In this document: one piece after another, positions 3,012-52,932 of the stretch
Layout of the letters: each line of letters starts with the position of its first letter
Numbering within the stretch: the first letter of the stretch is position 1
Assembly: GCA_900769705.1 (NCBI GenBank)
Contig: CAAGHP010000016.1
Span: 13,210 to 77,209 of the forward strand
Source of the DNA: Alphaproteobacteria bacterium
GTDB taxonomy: Bacteria; Pseudomonadota; Alphaproteobacteria; RF32; CAG-239
Length of the DNA: 64,000 nucleotides
Direction: 5' to 3'
Notes under the pieces: generated by a model
The model's input: only the letters and a program-made list of their open reading frames with translations
Told to the model about the DNA's origin: nothing
The model's database searches: none
Made by a program: the position numbers and the translations under genes

Positions 3012-5720
3012 ATGAAAAAACTATTAACTTATATAATTTTTTTAATTTTTGTTTTCAAGAGCTTTGCCGCTTATTCTGCTGAACCGCAGTTACCTGATGA
3101 CTTTAAAGGGTTGAATATGCGCGAGCGGCTGGCTGAACTTGCTGATGATGAAAGAGCCGAGCTTCCTTTGCTGCAAAGAATTTTGATTATGTATGAAATC
3201 GGAAATTATTTTAATAATAAGTATCCGAATGATGAAGTTTATGATGAAGATTTTGATGAAAAGTTGAAACCTTTTTTCCCAAACGCCGATGAATATCAGC
3301 TGCGTAAATACACAAATTTGCTGCGCACCGGTATAACCGTATATCGGCTGGGGCGTTTTGTGTATAACAAATATGTAACGCAAAAGCTGGTGCCGGCAGC
3401 TTATCGGCAAGTGCATTCCGAAAGTGATTTTGACCATCCAGACGAGGTTAAGTATCAGGAGGCTCCGACCGGAGAATTTATAAAAGTTTATAATTTCAAA
3501 AAATTTTTGACCTATAGCCATAATCCTGAAGAGCGGAAAGCAATTGAAGATTATAAAAAACTTCAGACTTCAAAAGATGATGTTTATGCTCAGTTTGAAT
3601 ATGCTTTGACGCATATCGAATGGAAAAAACTGCTGCTGTACGGGGAAAAATATAAGAATCCTTTGCTTTCGGATTTTGGAGTTGGAGAATTTGAGGAAGG
3701 TTTGGATGTCAGAGTGAGACTGCTGTCTGACGCCACTACTATTAACGGACAGAAAGAGTTTTATGCAGGACTGCAAGTCAATACGGAAAATAATAAGTTT
3801 GTATTGGCCAATAATTTGGCAAGTGATATGCAAAAGCCTCGGATAGATTTGCAAAAATCCAAAAATTTGGAAAGCTATCAGGTTTTGTATCCGGCACCGC
3901 AGAATTCTGTTTCTTTTCCGTTTGCTTACAAATATTTCGGCAATTTTCTCATTCCGATAAAAGTAACGGTAAAAAATCCGGAAGAGCCTCTGCTGCTGAA
4001 TGCTAAAGTAAATATGACGGTATGCGACGGAGCTTTGGCCTGTTTGGAACAAAGTTTTGAGCCGAAACTTATTGTTTTGACCGGAAAGGATTTTTCGTTT
4101 ACCAACGGTTATCAAAATTTCTTTCAGCAAAACATAAATATGCTGCCGAATAACGAATCGGAAAAGCTTAAATTGGAAAAATTTGTGGTTGATAAAGATG
4201 CTGACGGCGAATCTTTGCGGCTGGAATTTGAGTTGAACGGCGATATGGAAAGTTTTAATATTTTTATTGAAGACACAGACGGATATAATTTATTTTCGGT
4301 TCCGTTTATCAGTATTCAGGATAATAAAATTTTTGTCCGTTTTGAGCCTCTGAATAAGCATGCAAAACTGGAAAATACCGAGTATATAATCACAACCGTG
4401 CTGAACGGTTATGAGGCTTACCGTACAACCAGACTGGTGGCGCAAGCAGCATTGTTTGACACCGAAACGGCCTCTTTGAGCTTGGGACTGCTGTTGCTTG
4501 CAGTTTTGGGCGGTTTTATTCTTAATTTTATGCCGTGTGTATTTCCGGTTTTGTCGCTTAAAATCATCAGTTTGAGCCGAGCGCAGTCAATGCAGCAAAA
4601 ACGTCTGAAAAAATCGCTTTTTATAACGGTATGCGGCATTTTCAGTGGATTTACAATTTTGATTGTGCTGTTGCTGGCGGCAAAGTTTGCCGGATATTCT
4701 TTAGGCTGGGGCATGCAATATCAAAATATGACATTTTTAGTTATAATGTCGTTTGCTTTGGCTGGTTTTATGCTGATTTTACCAAGACTGCAAAGTTCAA
4801 GGCTGCAAAATATCAGTGTTTCGCAAGAAAAAAAACTTGGCTTTTTAATAGGTAATCTGATTGTGTTGCTGTCTACGCCGTGTACAGGACCATATCTGGC
4901 GACAGCTGTAGGTTTTGCTCTGGGTGGCAGCTATTCCGATATTATCCAGATAATGTATGCTGTGGCTTTGGGCTTGAGTATTCCGTATCTGCTAGCTTTG
5001 ACGATAAATAATCCGGAAACTTTGCTGCCAAAGCCCGGAAGCTGGCTGAATGTGCTGCAGAGTTGCATGCGCTTGATGCTGTTTTTGACTATTTGCTGGT
5101 TTGCTGTGCTGATTTATAATCAAACTGATTCTAATTGCGTGTTGATTTTGGCTGTATTTTTGCTGATATTTTGCGGAGTATTTGTCTTATATCGCCGTTT
5201 TACGGATTATTTAGATGGAGTTTTTGATGAAAGCGTAACGCTGGAAGTTATTGAGCGTCTGCGCAAAATCAGCCGAATAGCAATTTGCGGCTTATTTGCG
5301 GTTTTGGTTACCATAATGTCGTTTTATGCCGAAAATTCGCATCAGCATAATTTGCTTGAAAATGCCGTAACAAGGCAAACATTTTTAGATAAAAAAATGA
5401 TTGCCGAAAAGCTGGGAGCAGGGCGTTCAGTACTGTTGGAGATTGGAGCTGATTGGTGCTTGACCTGCCATTATAACGGCGTGATGACGCTGACGGATAA
5501 AAATTTAAAAATTTGGAATGAAATCTATAATATGGACTTTGTTAAAGTCGATTGGACCAATTATAATAAAGAGGTTTTGGATTTTATGGCTAAATACGGT
5601 CGCAAAGGATTGCCTTTTTATATTCTGTATACGCCGCTGATGCGCGACGGTCTGGTGTTGCCGGAGATTTTTACAAGCCGAGAGTTGGAAAATATTTTGC
5701 AGACATCGGCGCTGCGATAA
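3012..5720 (+). CDS. DsbD-family thiol:disulfide interchange protein with a long N-terminal periplasmic extension
   Basis: Start reassigned to 'MKKLLTYIIF' (signal peptide). Periplasmic Cys pair 'CDGALAC'; multi-TM core with 'MPCVFPVLSLK' and 'TPCTGP'; C-terminal thioredoxin-like 'WCLTC' CxxC. The track ORF's first 73 aa are a spurious extension. Confidence 0.6.
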   Translation: MKKLLTYIIFLIFVFKSFAAYSAEPQLPDDFKGLNMRERLAELADDERAELPLLQRILIMYEIGNYFNNKYPNDEVYDEDFDEKLKPFFPNADEYQLRKYTNLLRTGITVYRLGRFVYNKYVTQKLVPAAYRQVHSESDFDHPDEVKYQEAPTGEFIKVYNFKKFLTYSHNPEERKAIEDYKKLQTSKDDVYAQFEYALTHIEWKKLLLYGEKYKNPLLSDFGVGEFEEGLDVRVRLLSDATTINGQKEFYAGLQVNTENNKFVLANNLASDMQKPRIDLQKSKNLESYQVLYPAPQNSVSFPFAYKYFGNFLIPIKVTVKNPEEPLLLNAKVNMTVCDGALACLEQSFEPKLIVLTGKDFSFTNGYQNFFQQNINMLPNNESEKLKLEKFVVDKDADGESLRLEFELNGDMESFNIFIEDTDGYNLFSVPFISIQDNKIFVRFEPLNKHAKLENTEYIITTVLNGYEAYRTTRLVAQAALFDTETASLSLGLLLLAVLGGFILNFMPCVFPVLSLKIISLSRAQSMQQKRLKKSLFITVCGIFSGFTILIVLLLAAKFAGYSLGWGMQYQNMTFLVIMSFALAGFMLILPRLQSSRLQNISVSQEKKLGFLIGNLIVLLSTPCTGPYLATAVGFALGGSYSDIIQIMYAVALGLSIPYLLALTINNPETLLPKPGSWLNVLQSCMRLMLFLTICWFAVLIYNQTDSNCVLILAVFLLIFCGVFVLYRRFTDYLDGVFDESVTLEVIERLRKISRIAICGLFAVLVTIMSFYAENSHQHNLLENAVTRQTFLDKKMIAEKLGAGRSVLLEIGADWCLTCHYNGVMTLTDKNLKIWNEIYNMDFVKVDWTNYNKEVLDFMAKYGRKGLPFYILYTPLMRDGLVLPEIFTSRELENILQTSALR

Positions 5721-18497: not shown

Positions 18498-18528
18498 ATG
18501 TATAACAAATTAAACGGAGTTAATAAAT

Positions 18529-19185
18529 ATGTATAAAAATTTTGAAACAGGGCGCTCTATGATAGAAATGCTTGGCGTACTGGCAATTGTCGGTGTTCTT
18601 TCGGTCGGGGGAATCGCCGGTTATTCCAAAGCGATGGAACAATGGAAGATAAATAAAATTTTAAATGAATATAGTTATTTGATTTATGGTTTAATGGAGC
18701 ATTTATCCGACTATAAAAAACTAACCACAGCCAACTCAGGAGATGCCTCCAGTATTGGTTTGGGAGAAGCTATTATGGCCGCAGGGATTGTACCGCAGAC
18801 TTGGACTAAGGGAAATAGAGGTCCGCGTCAGCTTTTCGATTCAGATGGCAATACTGTAAATATTTTTTCACGCAGCCAAAGACTGGTCGTTGACTTATAT
18901 ATAGGAACTCAATACATAAATGATGATGGTAAAAGTGTGTCGGCAAATTTCTCTGCAGGATTATGCCGCGAATTGTTTTTAAACTTAGCCAAGCCGATTG
19001 CCGGTACTTTACATTGGGCCAGACTATACCGCAGCAACGAAACATCTCCGGTTTTGTTTTGGGGAAACAACACATGCAACGGAGCCGATAGAAAATGTCT
19101 GAACAGTATAACTTTATCAGAAATTGACGCTGCCTGTAAATTATGTATGAAAGATGACGTCTGTTGCATTGGATTAGAATTTTAA
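18529..19185 (+). CDS. prepilin-like protein (class III signal peptide-like N-terminus, Cys-rich C-terminus), paralog 1
   Basis: Leader 'MYKNFETG' then 'RSMIEMLGVLAIVGVLSVGGIAGYS' (Glu at +5 after Gly); C-terminal 'C..KCL..ITLS.I..C..C...C' motif shared with 3 paralogs. Confidence 0.5.
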   Translation: MYKNFETGRSMIEMLGVLAIVGVLSVGGIAGYSKAMEQWKINKILNEYSYLIYGLMEHLSDYKKLTTANSGDASSIGLGEAIMAAGIVPQTWTKGNRGPRQLFDSDGNTVNIFSRSQRLVVDLYIGTQYINDDGKSVSANFSAGLCRELFLNLAKPIAGTLHWARLYRSNETSPVLFWGNNTCNGADRKCLNSITLSEIDAACKLCMKDDVCCIGLEF

Positions 19186-31636: not shown

Positions 31637-31665
31637 TTGTAATTCCAAAATGATAGGAAGTTGTT

Positions 31666-32466
31666 ATGATATTAAAAAATTTGAAAAATTGTTTGGTCTT
31701 TCGTCTGTTCTCTTTCATTCTCAACTTCATGCTTGCGTGCGAGCATAGCGAACTACTGCAAACATTTAGGAATGTAATGTCAATATTATTGAAGCGGATG
31801 TACAATCCTGTATCCTCTGCGAATGAGCTGACGCTCAAAGCAAAGGATGATAAAAATAGGGTGTTGCAAATTGGTCGTTCAATGATAGAAATGCTCGGCG
31901 TGCTGGCTATCATCGCTGTACTGAGTGTCGGCGGAATAGCAGGATATTCAAAAGCCATGGAAATGTATAAAATCAATAAAACATTGGAGCATTATAACTA
32001 TTTAGTTTTGGGAATGCTTGACTACGTTAGAGAAACTAAAAATTTGGCAGAACAAACAAATACAGGTATGACAATGATTGCCGAAGCAGCTGGGCTTATT
32101 CCGGCAACATGGCAAAAGGAAAACAACTTTAATCTAAGAGATGACATGGAAAACATTGTGCAGATTTTTGCTAACAAAACACATCTTTCTATTGATTATA
32201 TTTTCCAAAATTCTGAAAAACACTCAATAACAGATAAATTATGCAATAATTTGTTCAATAACACATTAAAACCGTTAAGCAACAGTATTCAGGTTATTTA
32301 TGTTACAATAGCCAATAAGATAAATTTTGCTATTTATTATGGTAATACAACCTGTGATGCAGCCAAATCAAAAAAATGTCTCAGAGATGTAGAATTAAGC
32401 GATATAAGAGATTCCTGTAACTTTTGTGCCGAGCAAAAATTTTGTTCTATAGCTGTAAAGTTTTAA
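31666..32466 (+). CDS. prepilin-like protein, paralog 2, with ~70-aa N-terminal extension before the 'GRSMIEML' hydrophobic segment
   Basis: 'MILKNLKN...ACEHSEL...RMYNPVSSANELTLKAKDDKNRVLQIG|RSMIEMLGVLAIIAVLSVGGIAGYS'; C-terminal Cys motif 'C..KCL...LS.I...C..C....C'. Confidence 0.5.
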   Translation: MILKNLKNCLVFRLFSFILNFMLACEHSELLQTFRNVMSILLKRMYNPVSSANELTLKAKDDKNRVLQIGRSMIEMLGVLAIIAVLSVGGIAGYSKAMEMYKINKTLEHYNYLVLGMLDYVRETKNLAEQTNTGMTMIAEAAGLIPATWQKENNFNLRDDMENIVQIFANKTHLSIDYIFQNSEKHSITDKLCNNLFNNTLKPLSNSIQVIYVTIANKINFAIYYGNTTCDAAKSKKCLRDVELSDIRDSCNFCAEQKFCSIAVKF

Positions 32467-35159: not shown

Positions 35160-36521
35160 TTAGCGTCGGTTTTCGGATTTTAACTTTTTCAGCTGCAGCA
35201 AGGCTGAAGCATGCTGCTGTTTTTGAGCATTGTCGGCGTTATTATAGTGGCTGAAGCCAGACAATTTGCCGTTATACAGCTGCATAGCCATCTTTTTAGC
35301 GCCTGCGCCTTTATTGCCTACCGCTAAAATATCTTTAACGAGCTTCTTTTGAGCTTTGTCAGAAAGCTTTTGCTTAGCGCTGAAAGCTTGGTTTAGAGAT
35401 GAGCTTAAGCCGTATTGGTCGTACATTACTTTAGCATAAGCGGCTTTTTCTACGCTGATGTTCTGTGGAAGGCTGAAGTTTCCGGCGGCAATTTGCTTTT
35501 CAATTTTTTGATACAGCAGGTCGCGTTTAGCTTTAGAAGTCAAAAGTTCTATGGTGTTGTCATAGTAATTTTTCCAGATTTTTTCGGCAGAAGACGGCTT
35601 ATGTGCCGAGGTTTGGTCTTGCCGCTGAGCCGGAGCAGCAAACTCAGCCGTTTTAGCTTCGGCTTTTTTAGGTGTATATTGTTTTATAGTAATGGTGTTT
35701 TGCTTGGCTACCGGAGTTTTATTTGCGGTTTTAAGCCCTAAAAAGCCGATAAGCCCGATACCGGCAATAACTGCAGCGGCTTTAAGATTGTTTTTGGCTG
35801 CGGAAAACTTTTTCTTTAATCTGGAAAAAATAGAAACTTTTTCCGCTTTGGCAGCAGGCTGGGTTGAAACAGCTTGCGGCTGTGCTTTTGTTTGCACATG
35901 TGCCTGCGGTCTGATAATGCTTAGAGCCTGCCGGTCAAGCTTTTGAATAGCATTATAAATTTCTGAATCTTCGTAAAGATGTCCGCCGACCGTATTAAAA
36001 TATTCTTTGGTTAAGGCAATGTCTTTGTTTGGCACAACCGTTAAATTGCGAAGAATATTTGCAGCATAAACTTCAGCGGCGCGGCTCATGCTATCAAGCT
36101 CTATCAAGGCATCAGCATCCGAAGTATTTTTCTTTAATTTGCAGTAAGTTTTGCATTTTTTCCGCAATTCTTTCTCTGTCAGCGCTGTATATTCGTCTTT
36201 TGCTCCGAAAATTTTCTGCCAAAGAGTCTTTCGGCTTTCATTGATATAAGATGTAACGTCAAATTTTGCCTGTTTTTGCAGTTTAGCCAGATACTCCGGT
36301 TTGTGATAACCTCCGAAAGCGTTGATATATATGGCAAAAGGTCTTTTCAGCTCGCTGCTGAGAATCAGTCGGTTGTTTTTGAAATCAGATAAAATAGTTA
36401 AAGCTTTTTGTTCCAGTATTTCTCGTCTATTATATTTCTTTTCGGAAAAATCGCCTCTAAATGTTTTTTGATAGTTTTTTACATCGCGCAAAAGTTCTTT
36501 GGCTGTAAGTTCTGTGTTCAT
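35160..36521 (-). CDS. hypothetical protein with central TM helix and Pro/Gln/Ala-rich linker
   Basis: 453 aa; single TM 'AAVIAGIGLIGFLGL'; no catalytic motif. Confidence 0.4.
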   Translation of the reverse strand: MNTELTAKELLRDVKNYQKTFRGDFSEKKYNRREILEQKALTILSDFKNNRLILSSELKRPFAIYINAFGGYHKPEYLAKLQKQAKFDVTSYINESRKTLWQKIFGAKDEYTALTEKELRKKCKTYCKLKKNTSDADALIELDSMSRAAEVYAANILRNLTVVPNKDIALTKEYFNTVGGHLYEDSEIYNAIQKLDRQALSIIRPQAHVQTKAQPQAVSTQPAAKAEKVSIFSRLKKKFSAAKNNLKAAAVIAGIGLIGFLGLKTANKTPVAKQNTITIKQYTPKKAEAKTAEFAAPAQRQDQTSAHKPSSAEKIWKNYYDNTIELLTSKAKRDLLYQKIEKQIAAGNFSLPQNISVEKAAYAKVMYDQYGLSSSLNQAFSAKQKLSDKAQKKLVKDILAVGNKGAGAKKMAMQLYNGKLSGFSHYNNADNAQKQQHASALLQLKKLKSENRR

Positions 36522-36655: not shown

Positions 36656-36916
36656 TTAAATATCCAAAGCTTTGCGGTAGGTGTCCACCACCAATTCCTG
36701 TTCGTCGCGGTCAGCAGCGTTCATTTTGCGCAGTTTCAATACGGTACGCATTGCTTTTACATCAAAGCCTGCGGATTTTGCTTCGGCAAAAATATCACGG
36801 ATATCGCTCTGAATGCCTTTCTTTTCTTCTTCCAAACGCTCAATTCTTTCAATCAGCGAGCGCAAACGGTCAACAGCTACGCCGCCGACTTCTGCTGTTA
36901 CATTTTCTTCTGCCAT
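36656..36916 (-). CDS. DUF2312/UPF0335 family protein
   Basis: 'LIERIERLEEEKKGIQSDIRDIFAEAKSAGFDVKAMRTVLKLRK' is the conserved core of this largely alphaproteobacterial family. Start reassigned to 'MAEENV', preceded by RBS 'AAGGAGAAA'. Confidence 0.65.
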   Translation of the reverse strand: MAEENVTAEVGGVAVDRLRSLIERIERLEEEKKGIQSDIRDIFAEAKSAGFDVKAMRTVLKLRKMNAADRDEQELVVDTYRKALDI

Positions 36917-37074
36917 TGTTTTTCTCCTTAAAAAATTTGTCTGTAGTGTTTGTAGCAAACAAAAATTATTTTGACAAGTGGAATTTTTATCTAAAAATTA
37001 TCTTTAAACTAACAAGTTTTTAACCTATATGTGTGTATAGTTATTGTAAAGTTTAACATTATGAGGAAAAAATA

Positions 37075-38496: not shown

Positions 38497-38840
38497 TGAA
38501 ACTCGTCTAGCTGGTATCTGCTAGGGATTTTTGCGCTCGTGTACTAATCTGTACACGTCGCTTAAAAATTCCGTCGCATCTACGCACGCTATCCGAGTTT
38601 CTGAGAGTTTGTGCCGGTTGCAGCAATAAGCAGCCGGTATTTTTGTACGTTAAAATTTTCTCTCTTCTGGTTTTAACGCTATCTACACTACTATTTGCAA
38701 TTTTTGAGTTAGTGTATTTTGTGCTTATGTACTGGTTTGTACACTGCGAAAAAATCTTATTTTGCATTAAGCTCATTATCCGAATTTTTGCGAGTGAGAA
38801 CCGGTTGTTAGAAAATAGCAGCCGGTATTTTTGATAGGCT
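38497..38840. repeat. composite REP/MITE-like intergenic repeat block (locus 2)
   Basis: Begins at the first base after the pyk stop with 'gaaactcgtctag'. Shares the 'gcgctcgtgtacta..ctgtacac' and 'gtactggtttgtacactgcgaaaaaatctta.tttgcattaagctcattatccga' units with 30547-30860. Contains two copies of a 'ccggttg..cagccggtattttt' terminator-like hairpin. Confidence 0.55.
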
Positions 38841-38904
38841 AAAATTTCCTTTGCTTGGGATAGATTTTATTTATCTGCTTACTAAATAGTAGATAAAAAT
38901 ATAT

Positions 38905-39324
38905 CTATAGTGTATAAAATTTTTTTTCGGCAGGAGAAAATGTTATTGAAGAACGGATTGAAGATTTTACTTTTGTCTGAATAGCTTCAGGCAGAGTGCC
39001 GATTATTTTAAATTTTCCATTATTATACAACTCTTTAATTTGTTGCTTTTCAATTTTTTGCATACCGCCTTTACCGCAATGAATGCAGCAATCTTTAGTT
39101 AATTCTTCAGGCCAATCTTTTGTTGATAACTCTACTACTGAGGTCGTATCATATCTTGCGCGCAGTTTTACTTTTTCTACTTTTGAAGTAATGTATAAAT
39201 ATTCCATTGTTTCGGCGTTTACTATTATAATTAAGCGATGCTCTTTATCGCTGCCTATGGGTAAGGGCGCCTTGTAAACTTTCCATCTGTCCAATGGAAT
39301 CATCTTAAATGGCAAATCAATCAA
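38905..39324 (-). CDS. hypothetical protein; candidate toxin partner (PanT-like) of the upstream Panacea-domain protein
   Basis: 139 aa; start overlaps the stop of the Panacea-domain gene by 8 nt (operonic); no known toxin fold recognised; contains 'DCCIHCGKGG'. Confidence 0.4.
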   Translation of the reverse strand: MIDLPFKMIPLDRWKVYKAPLPIGSDKEHRLIIIVNAETMEYLYITSKVEKVKLRARYDTTSVVELSTKDWPEELTKDCCIHCGKGGMQKIEKQQIKELYNNGKFKIIGTLPEAIQTKVKSSIRSSITFSPAEKKFYTL

Positions 39325-39919
39325 TTTTATCTCTTAACGCATTTAAAAAATCTTCGTCCATGGTAAATACATCGTCATGCAAGCCTTTTGTTTTAGATTT
39401 TTCTAAAGTATCAGGGTTTAGTAAAAAGTCTTTTTCATCCATTAAAAAACGATTGCCATCAACACCCAATTTTTTCTCAAATTTTTTCCATTCAGGGTAA
39501 TCATGTGAAATATCACTCAAATCAAATTGACTGAACTTTCCAAAATTTGAAATAGAAAAATCTAAAGCTTCTTTAAAACTTTCTGAAAGTTCATCATCAC
39601 TTTGTGGTTTAATATAAACTGAATATTTATTAAGATTTTCAACGTCTTTTAATAAATTTGCGTCCGAAACTGCTGCACACTCAGGCAACCGGTGTTCCAT
39701 TATATCTTTAGCAGCTGAAGCAATTGGTCCCTTTTTTATGGCATAATAAGAATCATCAGAAGCTAAGCATCCATAATGACGCATATGATAACGATCTGCA
39801 AAGAATAAAATTTTTAAAAAATACATAACAGTTTGCTTGCTGTTGTTTGCAGCAGGAGCATGGTTTTGAATATAAAAAAGCGCTTGCAATATTTTGCGCA
39901 TAGAAATTGTATAAGACAT
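39317..39919 (-). CDS. Panacea (DUF4065) domain protein, putative antitoxin (SocA/PanA-like)
   Basis: 'KQTVMYFLKILFFADRYHMRHYGCLASDDSYYAIKKGPI' matches the DUF4065 core ('KLqKLlYfaq...AwkyGPV'). Confidence 0.55.
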   Translation of the reverse strand: MSYTISMRKILQALFYIQNHAPAANNSKQTVMYFLKILFFADRYHMRHYGCLASDDSYYAIKKGPIASAAKDIMEHRLPECAAVSDANLLKDVENLNKYSVYIKPQSDDELSESFKEALDFSISNFGKFSQFDLSDISHDYPEWKKFEKKLGVDGNRFLMDEKDFLLNPDTLEKSKTKGLHDDVFTMDEDFLNALRDKID

Positions 39920-40012
39920 TTTAATTCCTTTTCTTTACTAATTATATATTATTTTTATATAAAAATCAATATGTTTTATATCAGCTTGTTTAGTATTTAG
40001 TCATTTATATCA

Positions 40013-40891
40013 TTATTCCATTTCAACTGTAACTGAGCAGCTTTCGGTTGCGCCTGTACATTTTTTGCAAACTTCATTGATTTGCTGAGGGGTAATGCTT
40101 GTTAAACACTGTTTATTAGAACTCTTGCAATATTTGTCGCCGTACCAATAATTTGCGGAGTCATTATTACCTTTGCCGGAGCGCCATACACCGGTAAAGG
40201 TAATAAAGCTGTGCAAGGGCGCAAAAACATTAGCCATGATTTCTTCACAGAATTTAGCAGAAAATGCCGGAGTTGTGGCAGCTCCGTCTGCGTCATAGTT
40301 TGCACCGCCTATTCCTATGCTGAATACGACTCTGTTCCAGCGGGAAAATAAAGAGCTGTGGTTGCCGTAAGCATCTAAAAAAGATGTGTTGTGATATGCG
40401 GCGGCGTTTTGGTCTATAGTCCAATTATCAGGGACTAATCCTAAGGCTTGTATGGTGTCAGCTATGCCGTATACATCGCCTCTGGAATTTAGTTTTTTAA
40501 AGTCTGAAAGATGTTCTACTAACCCCTGAACAAGCAGGTTATATTCTCCGATTGCCTTGGTTAGTTTAAATTTTTCCATGGCTTTGGAATATCCGGCAAT
40601 ACCGCCGACACTCAGCACAGCGATTATTGACAGAACGCCCAGCATCTCAATCATGGAACGGCCAAGTTGCAACACACTCCTATTGTCATCCTTGGCTTTG
40701 AGCGTCAGCTCATTCGCCGAGGATCCAGGATGGTACATCCGATTCAATGGTATTGCCTTTATATTCCTGGATTCTCGCGATAGTTCGCTATGCTCACACG
40801 CAAGAATGACGTTGCGAGAGAAGGCGAAAAAACGAGAGATATTACTATTTCCTTCTGTAAATTTATCGTTGCTTTTCAAATTCTTATACAT
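40013..40891 (-). CDS. prepilin-like protein, paralog 3, with long N-terminal extension
   Basis: Start reassigned to 'MYKNLKSND', with RBS 'GGAG' 9 nt upstream, the same context as paralogs 1 and 4. '...RMYHPGSSANELTLKAKDDNRSVLQLG|RSMIEMLGVLSIIAVLSVGGIAGYS'; C-terminal Cys motif. Confidence 0.5.
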   Translation of the reverse strand: MYKNLKSNDKFTEGNSNISRFFAFSRNVILACEHSELSRESRNIKAIPLNRMYHPGSSANELTLKAKDDNRSVLQLGRSMIEMLGVLSIIAVLSVGGIAGYSKAMEKFKLTKAIGEYNLLVQGLVEHLSDFKKLNSRGDVYGIADTIQALGLVPDNWTIDQNAAAYHNTSFLDAYGNHSSLFSRWNRVVFSIGIGGANYDADGAATTPAFSAKFCEEIMANVFAPLHSFITFTGVWRSGKGNNDSANYWYGDKYCKSSNKQCLTSITPQQINEVCKKCTGATESCSVTVEME

Positions 40892-40917
40892 ATTTTCTAA
40901 CTCCGAAATTGTTACAT

Positions 40918-41097
40918 AAAAACAAAACCCGCTGTACAAAAGCGGGCGGATGTTAGTAAACCGTATATATGCAAACGGCTCGGCTTATTCAGCCATATAG
41001 CCTTATTTAGCCGACATCCGTCCAACGGAAATCGGCATAAAAAATTTAAGTCGTTTATGCTCAAGCGACCGCATATATAAAGGGTTACTACGCCCTG
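40918..41097 (-). promoter_or_regulatory. conserved structured 5' leader element, copy B, with terminator hairpin, upstream of prepilin-like paralog 3
   Basis: Reverse complement aligns block-for-block with 18319-18497 and 52933-53112. Terminator 'cccgct-tttgtac-agcggg' plus 'ttttgttttt'. Confidence 0.45.
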
Positions 41098-41197: not shown

Positions 41198-42136
41198 TTA
41201 GTCATCCAAAAACGGATGTATCATAACCGTGCGGTAGTTGTGCATAAATTCACTTTTAACCGCTTCTGCCCTAAATCTCGGAGCCATTTGCTTGAAATAG
41301 AGATTCTTCTCGCGAAACAGCTCAACGCATTTGTTTAGGTTGATTTTCTGATTGCGGCTTTTAGCCAGCCAATCCAGAGTTTTCAAAAACAGTTCAACCG
41401 GTTTCATCAGGCTCAAATTCTGTGGAATTTGCTGAATTATATAGTCCAGAGGTTTGCCGGTGGTATCCATATCCTCAATGATTTTGTTCAAATCATGCAC
41501 AATATTACCAATCAGGCGTGTTGCTTGGATATATACCACGTCATTTTTAGAATCCGGCTCCAGCTTATCGACTAACAAGTCATGCGCATATTCAGTCAAA
41601 TCACAACCGATGTCATCATTCATCTGTTGTCCGAAAAGGTAATTTGCATTGTCCTTTTTGCGGGCTTCATCCAAATCGGCTATAGCCGGTTGGACGGAAT
41701 CTGGATCAATCGCCAAGCAAACCGGAAGCATCAACAGCAGCTTGTTACGGTAAAAATGTATCAGCGTTGCAAACGCATTTAGTGGTTTGTCCGGCTTTGT
41801 CAAAGCGGCGCAGTCCCAATCAATATACATTTGCACCAGCTGCTGCACTTTGCTTTGCGGGTAGTCAACGTGGTGAGACTGATGTCTGCGGTGAATGCGT
41901 TGTATCTGCTTTTCATTAAGCCAAGGCACAGCGTATAAAAGCAGTTTGTCGCAATCGTGCAGCCAACCGGAAAGAGAATAGCGTCCGGTTAAATAGTGTT
42001 CGCGTTCCAAAAAGGCAAGCTTATGCTCAAGTGTATAAGCTTCATCCGGAATTCGCCAAAAACTGTTCGGCTGCCATTTGGCACTGATTTTACCTAAAAC
42101 CTGTTTACTGAAATCATTTAAAAAATGTATAGCCAT
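41198..42136 (-). CDS. hypothetical protein, possible HD-domain phosphohydrolase
   Basis: 312 aa; 'GWLHDCDK' followed by 'HRRHQSHHVD' suggests an H..HD..H..H..D metal-binding pattern; weak. Confidence 0.35.
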   Translation of the reverse strand: MAIHFLNDFSKQVLGKISAKWQPNSFWRIPDEAYTLEHKLAFLEREHYLTGRYSLSGWLHDCDKLLLYAVPWLNEKQIQRIHRRHQSHHVDYPQSKVQQLVQMYIDWDCAALTKPDKPLNAFATLIHFYRNKLLLMLPVCLAIDPDSVQPAIADLDEARKKDNANYLFGQQMNDDIGCDLTEYAHDLLVDKLEPDSKNDVVYIQATRLIGNIVHDLNKIIEDMDTTGKPLDYIIQQIPQNLSLMKPVELFLKTLDWLAKSRNQKINLNKCVELFREKNLYFKQMAPRFRAEAVKSEFMHNYRTVMIHPFLDD

Positions 42137-42271: not shown

Positions 42272-42739
42272 TTATTCCATATTTCCCAGCAGGCGGTTTT
42301 TAACTACATCTCCGACTTTTATATTGTTGGCTTTAACTTGTCCGGCATTGACTTCCAACACGGCGCGCGGACGTTTCGGCGGATAAATTCCGTCTGTTGA
42401 ATAAGGCTTTGCATTTTCATAAATGTAAAAAATTCTACCTGTGGCATCAATAAATATCATGTCCAGCGGAATAAGGGTGTCTTTCATCCACATAGCAACG
42501 TCTATATCTTGCGGAACAATGTTTACATCCATAATCAAACCTGAATCTTCTGCCAACGAGCTGCGTCCCATTAAGCCTTGATAAAGCAGTTCTTTTGTGT
42601 CGGCAACTTCAACGTTGTATTCGTATTGCGCATTTTCAGACTGAATAATCAATTTTTCGGTTTTGTTATCATCTTTTTTAGAGCAGGCAGCAGCCAAAAT
42701 CAAAGCTGATAACGCAAAAACTTTTAATAACTTATACAT
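42272..42739 (-). CDS. DUF192 family protein (signal peptide/lipoprotein)
   Basis: 155 aa; lipobox 'LAAACS'; 'MWMKDTLIPLDMIFID' is the DUF192 (COG1430) core. Confidence 0.5.
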   Translation of the reverse strand: MYKLLKVFALSALILAAACSKKDDNKTEKLIIQSENAQYEYNVEVADTKELLYQGLMGRSSLAEDSGLIMDVNIVPQDIDVAMWMKDTLIPLDMIFIDATGRIFYIYENAKPYSTDGIYPPKRPRAVLEVNAGQVKANNIKVGDVVKNRLLGNME

Positions 42740-52246: not shown

Positions 52247-52903
52247 CTACAGGATAATCGTCAAGGCGCATCTTTTTGTTTTATCACAAGAGGAACACAT
52301 TGATTTCATTTTAGATAAAGTCATTGTGTTCAAACACGGACGACCGGTACTGCAAAAAGTGTCACCGTAGTAATACCCATTGCCGCCGGGCATTAAAATT
52401 CCTCTTATGGTATAATGAAGTGGCACCGCGATTTTATCCAAAACTTCAAAACATAAATTTCCGTTAAAGTTAGCTGCGATTTTTTCACCTTTGTCATTTT
52501 CCGTCAACCCGCCGAATATAAAGTCAATAATAATCCCCGATTCCTCTGGACTGGCATATCCGTACGCATTGCTGTACTCTCTGTAAAACGTACCAATAAA
52601 ATTTCCATAATTATCCTGTATATATTGAGATGAAATTTTTTGCCAAGTGTTGGGTATTAAATTTAAAGAAATCAACATATCAGACAAAAAAACTTGACCT
52701 TTTAGCTGCTCTTGCAAATTTTGTCTGTATTCCAACAGCCCGAAAATTAAATTATTATAATCGGTTATCAGTTTATTTATCTTGTACTTTTCCATAGCTT
52801 TTGAATATCCGGCGATACCACCTACACTAAGTACTGCGATAATCGCCAGAACGCCCAACATCTCAATCATACTGCGCCCGTTTTCTATAAATTTTTTGTA
52901 CAT
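52247..52903 (-). CDS. prepilin-like protein, paralog 4
   Basis: 'MYKKFIENG|RSMIEMLGVLAIIAVLSVGGIAGYSKAMEKYKINK'; C-terminal 'CSTGRPCLNTMTLSKMKSMCSSCDKTKRC'. Confidence 0.5.
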   Translation of the reverse strand: MYKKFIENGRSMIEMLGVLAIIAVLSVGGIAGYSKAMEKYKINKLITDYNNLIFGLLEYRQNLQEQLKGQVFLSDMLISLNLIPNTWQKISSQYIQDNYGNFIGTFYREYSNAYGYASPEESGIIIDFIFGGLTENDKGEKIAANFNGNLCFEVLDKIAVPLHYTIRGILMPGGNGYYYGDTFCSTGRPCLNTMTLSKMKSMCSSCDKTKRCALTIIL

Positions 52904-52932
52904 ATTTCTAACTCCGTTTATTTTGTTACACT

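Follow-up and report, generated by a model that had tools for sequence, protein, structure and literature searches.

A Panacea-domain gene overlapping the gene of a divergent MazF/PemK-like partner: a candidate PanAT operon in an alphaproteobacterial genome

Toxin-antitoxin (TA) pairs consisting of a Panacea antitoxin (PanA) and a toxin (PanT) were defined as PanAT systems by Kurata et al. 2022 (PNAS), with PemK among the partners recognised by CDD (PMC8832971). Two of the clusters described there, T5 and T6, are EndoA/PemK/MazF-like by HHpred only, and the PanTs of Pseudomonas moraviensis (T6) and Bifidobacterium ruminantium are validated inhibitors of translation that are neutralised by PanA (PMC8832971). 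PanA-PanT complexes form independently of ClpXP and Lon, and the GPV motif of the Panacea domain is reported to be critical for neutralisation (PMC8832971). According to Ernits et al. 2023, a standalone Panacea domain can neutralise a toxin directly; other PanAs do so via an added segment, and the core may then serve as a sensor (PMC10440598). In the PanA of Corynebacterium doosanense, it is two C-terminal helices that do the neutralising (PMC10440598). Here, a pair of this kind is described in a 64,000-nucleotide stretch of DNA from an alphaproteobacterium (contig CAAGHP010000016.1, positions 13,210 to 77,209; referred to below as the window), where the gene for a 200-amino acid (aa) Panacea protein overlaps that for a 139-aa protein. 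The pair is a probable PanAT system with a divergent MazF/PemK-type PanT, a combination that is experimentally established in other bacteria. It probably constitutes a type II operon: the toxin would be an endoribonuclease of divergent MazF type, which PanA would neutralise by binding to it directly.

The panA-panT unit and its conservation

The two genes and the elements associated with them are arranged as follows, with positions given in window coordinates.

39317 to 39919, minus strand: panA, 200 aa, ATG start, TGA stop, with an AAGGA Shine-Dalgarno sequence 7 nucleotides (nt) upstream
39485 to 39817, minus strand: Panacea domain, PanA residues 35-145 (Pfam envelope), containing FFADRYH, GPI and SHDYPEWK
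39320 to 39484, minus strand: C-terminal extension of PanA, residues 146-200, acidic (isoelectric point, pI, 4.8), with conserved motifs DFF-NP and DPF..D..FL...KE.F
38905 to 39324, minus strand: panT, 139 aa, TTG start, candidate divergent MazF/PemK-fold toxin, basic (pI 9.3)
39317 to 39324, minus strand: 8-nt overlap of the panA TGA (39317-39319) with the panT TTG (39322-39324), read as ...AAA ATT GAT TGA
39941 to 39969, minus strand: candidate sigma-70-like promoter, TTGATT-17 nt-TATAAT, 22 nt upstream of the panA ATG; a consensus match only

PanA matched PF13274 (SocA_Panacea) with 66.8 bits (E 4e-18), the gathering score being 25.7; its residues 35-145 correspond to profile positions 2-113 of 113 and hence to the full domain. 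A PHROG search returned a match to phrog_1281 (E 7e-19). The original prediction, made from the sequence of this DNA alone, had assigned the 200-aa protein to Panacea/DUF4065 on the strength of the core string 'MYFLKILFFADRYH...YYAIKKGPI', which is present in the open reading frame (ORF) at 39317..39919. Failure of a profile search had been named beforehand as refuting, and the assignment survives that search. PF13274 was found in all 115 homologues of PanA. The protein comprises the Panacea core without an N-terminal DNA-binding domain and has a computed pI of 5.4.

Motif conservation was read from a 34-sequence alignment of the PanA subfamily, in which GPV/GPI, FFADRYH and YPEW occupy invariant or near-invariant columns. 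The first of these reads G64-P65-I66 in the window copy, G64, P65 and V66 being near-invariant in the subfamily, so that the change from V to I is a conservative one. Between panA and its close relatives at loci L001, L005 and L006 (loci of related pairs carry L numbers throughout), the ratio of nonsynonymous to synonymous substitution rates (dN/dS) was 0.14-0.19 and, by this measure, PanA is under purifying selection.

The 8-nt overlap on the minus strand between the panA stop and the start of the 139-aa ORF was also part of the original prediction and was found as described when the sequence was read. It lies within the distance used by Kurata et al. 2022, in whose scheme the two genes are at most 100 nt apart. 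The use of TTG as the panT start is supported because the stretch that it adds ahead of the first internal ATG ('IDLPF') lines up with an 'xLPF' motif conserved at the N-terminus of ATG-initiated homologues. The ATG starts of panT in those homologues fall 16-31 nt inside panA, and panT at L004 and L015 is without any ATG alternative. The candidate promoter agrees with the sigma-70-like consensus at 10/12 positions in a consensus scan. An imperfect inverted repeat of 19 nt (39860-39878 / 39952-39970; 79% complementary) flanks the promoter-like -35 element and the panA start, and could be an operator or could have arisen by chance.

Loci carrying the pair were sought in genomes and viral contigs with partner-only patterns derived from a 4-sequence alignment, the 45-sequence alignment containing no conserved 7-mer. 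All 13 loci found in this way have a PanA gene directly upstream of the partner gene and overlapping it (13/13), and in each of the eight loci found via PanA the PanA gene likewise lies upstream of the partner. The two genes overlap by 8-32 nt in 19 of the 21 related loci; at the remaining two, L135 and L136, panT starts 3-4 nt after panA. PanA relatives with 94%, 58% and 55% identity are followed directly by a 137-139-aa partner with 93%, 53% and 47% identity, respectively. More distant PanA relatives (34-47% identity; Saccharibacteria and others) also carry a member of the partner family, with hidden Markov model scores of 173, 99, 27 and 19 bits, the two weakest being those at L135 and L136. 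The coupled pair persists across phyla down to about 21-25% partner identity. It was found in Alphaproteobacteria, Endomicrobia, Fibrobacterota, Chitinispirillales, Saccharibacteria and phage contigs, and the neighbouring genes differed from one setting to the next. Identities of PanA and PanT to the window copies are correlated across 17 loci (Spearman 0.91), a figure that is descriptive only because these loci are not phylogenetically independent. The genes panA and panT are therefore strictly linked, with conserved synteny and co-divergence. The translationally coupled TA layout and the linkage of the 139-aa ORF to Panacea genes in other genomes, both raised at the outset, are thereby borne out: the two genes form a conserved module with PanA upstream in every related locus examined.

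Two further observations were made at these loci. At L133, several TA-like modules cluster next to an S24 repressor and RhuM: directly 3' of the homologous pair (3716-5272) come a DUF4160/DUF2442 pair, a helix-turn-helix gene and another Panacea gene, shorter than the first, after which lies an ORF of 124 aa that includes a hydrophobic stretch. On pM103a of Sinorhizobium sp. M103 (L137, 432773-433192), an unannotated PanA-like gene, which matches the SocA equivalog model weakly (21.8 bits), overlaps an ORF of ~122 aa. The likeness of this ORF to the partner family is collinear but non-significant (hhalign P 0.015); the ORF may belong, at a greater distance, to the same superfamily.

Predicted fold and active site of PanT

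PanT gave no significant match in Pfam, NCBIfam, PADLOC or PHROGs, and tblastn against GenBank phages and PLSDB plasmids returned no match. A word-indexed homologue search retrieved a single protein (99% identical) with PanT and four proteins with the family alignment. When the full set of 1.84 billion cluster representatives was scanned with HMMER, 53 relatives were obtained at E ≤ 1e-3, and 31 at E ≤ 1e-10; the family is almost wholly metagenomic or derived from metagenome-assembled genomes (MAGs), and its members are without names.

A structural model of PanT was obtained with AlphaFold2 from 51 family sequences (predicted local distance difference test score, pLDDT, 91.1; predicted template modelling score 0.83); from the single sequence, the pLDDT was 40. 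The model consists of three N-terminal strands, a short helix, more strands and C-terminal helices, and it fits the SH3-like barrel with a C-terminal helix that marks the MazF/PemK/Kid/CcdB superfamily at the level of fold. When BFVD was searched with Foldseek, a gut-phage 'PemK-like protein' was the sole match below 1e-3 (E 1.2e-4, prob 1.0, template modelling (TM) scores 0.56/0.64, root mean square deviation 3.9). In the PDB, the best match was CptN (4rmo, prob 0.97, E 0.04) and the second AbiQ (4glk); both are RNase toxins with a Kid-like fold (PMC4627078).

Profile-profile comparison gave a consistent result. Here, the PanT family was aligned by hhalign with a MazF/EndoA profile consisting of 24 viral-contig homologues together with the Escherichia coli and Bacillus subtilis proteins. 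Over 101 columns, which take in MazF positions 6-115 of 118, the probability was 90.8% (P 1.2e-6), and an independent run against MazF gave 89.7%. Control comparisons with the reversed profile and with 12 column-shuffled profiles did not exceed 0.6%, with scores of at most 15 vs 42.5 for the real comparison. One of the 45 family members reaches Pfam PemK_toxin at E 0.004, which is below threshold. By model and profile comparison, PanT is assigned to the MazF/PemK (Kid/CcdB/ToxN-like) toxin superfamily as a very divergent member. The partner had been thought to be of unknown fold and to belong to no known toxin family; this view gives way to the superfamily assignment, and what was put forward as a novel PanT becomes a divergent, unannotated family of MazF-like PanTs, the combination of Panacea with a MazF-like toxin being already validated (PMC8832971). 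A CEP44 match of the family profile among PDB sequences (E 0.0017) is weak and probably spurious.

Conservation of PanT residues was counted over 45 family members. Cys83 is invariant (45/45), and His29 (44/45), Asp59 (43/45), Thr46 and Ser47 (42/45 each) and Ser126 (41/45) are close to invariant; Arg30 is found in 20/45. In E. coli MazF, Arg29 and Thr52 (Thr48 in B. subtilis) are catalytic residues. The corresponding positions of PanT are encoded as follows.

39235 to 39240, minus strand: codons for PanT His29-Arg30, aligned with E. coli MazF His28-Arg29 (hhalign)
39184 to 39189, minus strand: codons for PanT Thr46-Ser47, Thr46 being aligned with MazF Thr52 (E. coli) / Thr48 (B. subtilis) (hhalign)

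Given these counts, the fold class and the Thr are MazF-like, but the signature is specific to the family. The window copy has an intact ORF and retains every near-invariant residue; it carries Pro20 and Arg124 where its relatives carry Leu and Cys.

In several respects, the pair resembles the MazF-like PanAT systems of Kurata et al. These likewise have a Panacea antitoxin without an N-terminal domain encoded first in the operon, genes that overlap or nearly abut, and a toxin that has no match in CDD or Pfam and is EndoA/PemK/MazF-like by profile or structure methods. Cluster T6 also occurs in Endomicrobia and in termite-gut spirochaetes, so that its habitats overlap those of the present family. 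By contrast, the overlaps in the present family, at -8 to -32 nt, exceed the -4 to +6 given for the T6 entries compared, and, with T5/T6 compared by description only, the present family differs from the T5/T6 PanTs in being known almost solely from metagenomes and MAGs.

Compared with MazEF/PemIK (Kis-Kid), the toxin is of the same fold class, with an alignment over the whole MazF domain, the catalytic Thr in register and, in the window copy, the His-Arg pair in register as well. In both cases a basic toxin is paired with an acidic antitoxin, and the antitoxin gene comes first in a coupled unit. The systems differ in the antitoxin, which is Panacea here and AbrB-type or swapped-hairpin MazE/PemI there. 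Relative to MazF, PanT also has a helix inserted at approximately residues 93-105 and one more helix at its C-terminus. The family is marked by invariants of its own (His29, Asp59 and Cys83), the position of the catalytic Arg not being conserved.

Proposed action of the pair and competing explanations

In the proposed scheme, one promoter upstream of 39919 would drive panA and the translationally coupled panT. PanT would most likely halt translation by cleaving single-stranded RNA as a sequence-specific endoribonuclease that needs no metal, with an active site formed by Thr46-Ser47 (equivalent to MazF Thr52) and His29, together with Arg30 in the window copy (equivalent to MazF His28-Arg29). 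The acidic PanA would bind the basic PanT directly and block it, probably through the conserved acidic/aromatic tail at residues 146-200, while the Panacea core would serve as a scaffold or a sensor. By analogy, residues 146-200 are proposed as the candidate toxin-neutralising segment, and the tail would occlude the RNA-binding groove of PanT. The toxin would be freed once PanA is lost or displaced, whether by proteolysis, because the cassette itself has been lost or in response to a phage cue. The module appears to ride on a low-GC (low guanine-plus-cytosine), 1.8-kb mobile block and, in relatives, on temperate phage genomes, and its likely roles would be to stabilise its carrier and/or to exclude other phages. 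The analysis establishes which domain PanA carries, the fold class of PanT and the coupling, synteny and co-divergence of the two genes; the toxicity and RNase chemistry of PanT, its neutralisation through direct contact, the function of the PanA tail and the biological purpose of the pair are inferred.

Several observations weigh against this scheme. PanT itself has no Pfam PemK/MazF score and does not reach the PF02452 gathering score, in which it differs from MazEF/PemIK toxins; the family profile finds no MazF chain among PDB sequences; and the top 50 Foldseek PDB matches of PanT include no canonical structure of MazF, Kid or CcdB. The TM-scores to its best structural matches are just 0.47-0.56. 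The position of the MazF catalytic Arg is occupied by Arg in fewer than half of the family (the 20/45 given above), and the invariants His29, Asp59, Cys83 and Ser126 differ from the MazF set. The dN/dS of panT vs its closest relatives (L001, L005 and L006) is 0.5-0.94, on only 14-15 substitutions, and may allow for relaxed constraint on the toxin in this lineage. In addition, some MazF-like PanTs are non-toxic in E. coli, or toxic yet not neutralised by PanA (Kurata et al., PMC8832971).

Of the competing explanations, the one that survives best, which is possible though clearly the less likely, retains the same proteins and assigns them mainly to abortive-infection or superinfection-exclusion defence: Panacea would sense a phage cue and release or activate a MazF-like toxin without turnover of the antitoxin. 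This explanation overlaps that preferred here and differs from it chiefly in trigger and purpose. It draws on the occurrence of relatives as accessory genes in phage and prophage genomes (L015-L017, L002, L133, L134). The L015 pair lies inside a phage genome with an anti-repressor on one side and terminase and portal genes on the other, and the L015-L017 pairs all sit between anti-repressor and terminase genes. The L002 pair adjoins a phage lysozyme. CI repressors and an integrase are found near the L134 pair, and an S24 repressor and RhuM near that of L133, the two neighbourhoods together containing CI or S24 repressors, RhuM, Fic and integrase. Moreover, the antitoxin domain of CapRel, a fused toxSAS TA protein, shares its fold with the Panacea-associated PAD1 (PMC10440598), and a phage capsid protein is reported to activate CapRel directly (PMC9712102). 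Against a primary role in defence, neither PanA nor PanT matches PADLOC, and the window pair lies outside any defence island, having pyruvate kinase (and, further out, GapR) on one side and a pilin-like gene on the other.

It is unlikely that PanT is a MazF/CcdB-type barrel that is not an RNase, acting on another target (e.g. DNA gyrase, as CcdB does) or as a His29/Asp59/Cys83 enzyme. Given that the family has an invariant set of its own, its chemistry or target could differ from that of MazF; the incomplete conservation of the Arg position, the absence of a canonical MazF structure from the top PDB matches and the fact that CcdB shares the MazF fold (HHpred lists, Kurata dataset) all favour this alternative. 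However, it is MazF/EndoA that the family profile matches, and the catalytic Thr falls opposite the near-invariant Thr46 in that alignment. The best PDB neighbours, CptN and AbiQ, are RNases with a Ser/Thr pair in the active site (PMC4627078), and PanT is strongly basic, as RNA binders are.

Slightly less probable still is that the genes do not form a TA system: they would then be a conserved, phage-derived pair that serves some other function or, in this genome, the decaying remains of a system whose toxin is no longer active. The dN/dS of panT and the unusual Pro20 and Arg124 of the window allele are in keeping with decay, and several predicted PanTs proved non-toxic in E. coli (Kurata et al., PMC8832971). 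Set against this are the intact panT ORF with its full complement of near-invariant residues, the maintenance of the coupled unit across phyla at the low partner identities noted above and the apparent purifying selection on PanA.

A type VI arrangement like SocAB, in which PanA would be a proteolytic adaptor delivering the toxin to ClpXP and not a binding inhibitor, was raised because the host is alphaproteobacterial, SocA of the alphaproteobacterium Caulobacter being the founding member of Panacea. SocAB shares with the window pair a Panacea antitoxin encoded first and overlapping genes, and SocB-cluster loci also have large antitoxin-toxin overlaps of -29 and -35 nt. The arrangement is disfavoured because PanA fails the SocA equivalog model, with no match to NCBIfam NF047745 (SocA_antitoxin) at E ≤ 1, a model that does weakly match the Sinorhizobium PanA described above. 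In addition, neutralisation by the PanAs of Kurata et al. is independent of ClpXP and Lon, with stable complexes (PMC8832971), and the MazF-like fold of PanT points to RNA and not to the sliding clamp as a target. The SocAB explanation is accordingly improbable.

Finally, the notion that PanT is a type III toxin of the ToxN/AbiQ/CptN kind, with a repetitive RNA as its true antitoxin and PanA as an accessory, was raised because CptN and AbiQ, Kid-like RNases with a Ser/Thr pair after the equivalent strand, head the PDB list, and the Thr-Ser motif following strand 3 is similar to Thr52-Ser53 of ToxN, though in an alignment short of significance; it can be rejected as very improbable because Tandem Repeats Finder detected no tandem repeats upstream of or around the genes beyond a trivial 7-nt array at 39989-40007 and because profile similarity is lacking (hhalign vs ToxN/AbiQ 0.1% with 4 PDB sequences and 0.6% with 24 sequences, vs 90.8% for MazF), the upstream position being in any case taken by panA in all loci and the type III toxins being larger (155-190 aa vs 139 aa).

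Genomic setting and significance

The preferred scheme, a type II pair with a MazF-type endoribonuclease, places the genes on a mobile cassette. The GC content of the panA/panT region is 0.29-0.33 vs 0.40-0.46 in its flanks, and the features surrounding the genes are as follows.

38844 to 40654: low-GC shared block of 1.8 kb, comprising the mature part of the pilin-like gene, panA and panT; 93-95% nucleotide identity (blastn, tblastx)
38611-38660, plus strand: terminator-like hairpin with T-run, copy 1 (39-nt unit 38622-38660), 3' of pyruvate kinase
38800 to 38848, plus strand: terminator-like hairpin with T-run, copy 2 (39-nt unit 38810-38848), at the right-hand edge of the cassette and inside the L005 homology

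The 38844-40654 block is 93-95% identical to L001 and L006 (Alphaproteobacteria MAG), the flanks of which are unrelated to the window. Given that a block of such identity sits in unrelated flanks, the cassette is mobile or recombining. L005 has most of the block in common with the window; homology runs from 40011, inside the last codon of the pilin-like gene, to 38766, the L005 contig starting there. The REP-like (repetitive extragenic palindromic) repeats noted in the original prediction amount to just the two hairpin copies listed above, which are GC-rich and share 74% identity across 39 nt, 16 of which form an exact core. From their sequence, both look like intrinsic terminators rather than REP elements.

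Four pilin-like paralogues were observed in the window, at 18514-19185 (plus strand), 31657-32466 (plus strand), 40013-40984 (minus strand) and 52247-52930 (minus strand). Their N-termini are near-identical ('GRSMIEMLGVLAIIAVLSVGGIAGYSKAME', a prepilin-type signal followed by a hydrophobic helix) and diverge thereafter; the paralogue beside panA, at 40013-40939, has no Pfam match. The left breakpoint of the block shared with L001 and L006 coincides exactly with the conserved N-terminal segment of the pilin. Given this position of the breakpoint, the pilin body, panA and panT may recombine there together, and the TA pair could be hitch-hiking on a pilin cassette or stabilising it. Elsewhere in the neighbourhood, ORF 35160-36521 (minus strand) encodes a Lys/Ala-rich protein of 453 aa with one hydrophobic segment and ORF 41198-42136 (minus strand) a protein of 312 aa, neither with a Pfam match; genes for GapR (36656-36958) and a DUF192 protein (42272-42739), also present in the window, are indicative of an alphaproteobacterial host.

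The general picture of Panacea systems is left unchanged by the stable pairing and the His/Asp/Cys set described here, given that Panacea with a MazF-like RNase is already experimentally established. What is new is, at most, a further unannotated family of MazF-like PanTs with unusual conserved residues and an unusually stable pairing, T5/T6 having been compared by description only. A bolder proposal, which we regard as doubtful, is that the family is an undescribed branch of the MazF superfamily, apart from T5/T6 by their description, with a catalytic set of its own (His29, Thr46-Ser47, Asp59 and Cys83) and tied to a single PanA subclade. A separate branch with its own catalytic set would imply a chemistry or target other than that of MazF. 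If so, and unlike the usual 'hyperpromiscuous' Panacea, the pairing would be locked across at least four bacterial phyla and temperate phages, with a conserved DPF...FL tail.

A fold and a likely activity can now be assigned to a small protein family that is unnamed in Pfam, NCBIfam, PADLOC and PHROGs. The list of MazF-like toxins predicted to be neutralised by Panacea is thereby extended to gut and termite-gut Alphaproteobacteria, Endomicrobia, Fibrobacterota, Saccharibacteria and their phages. Two aspects may be of interest to TA specialists, namely a PanA subclade that has not swapped its partner over very deep divergence and a PanT that retains the MazF Thr while exchanging the conserved Arg signature for an invariant His/Asp/Cys set.

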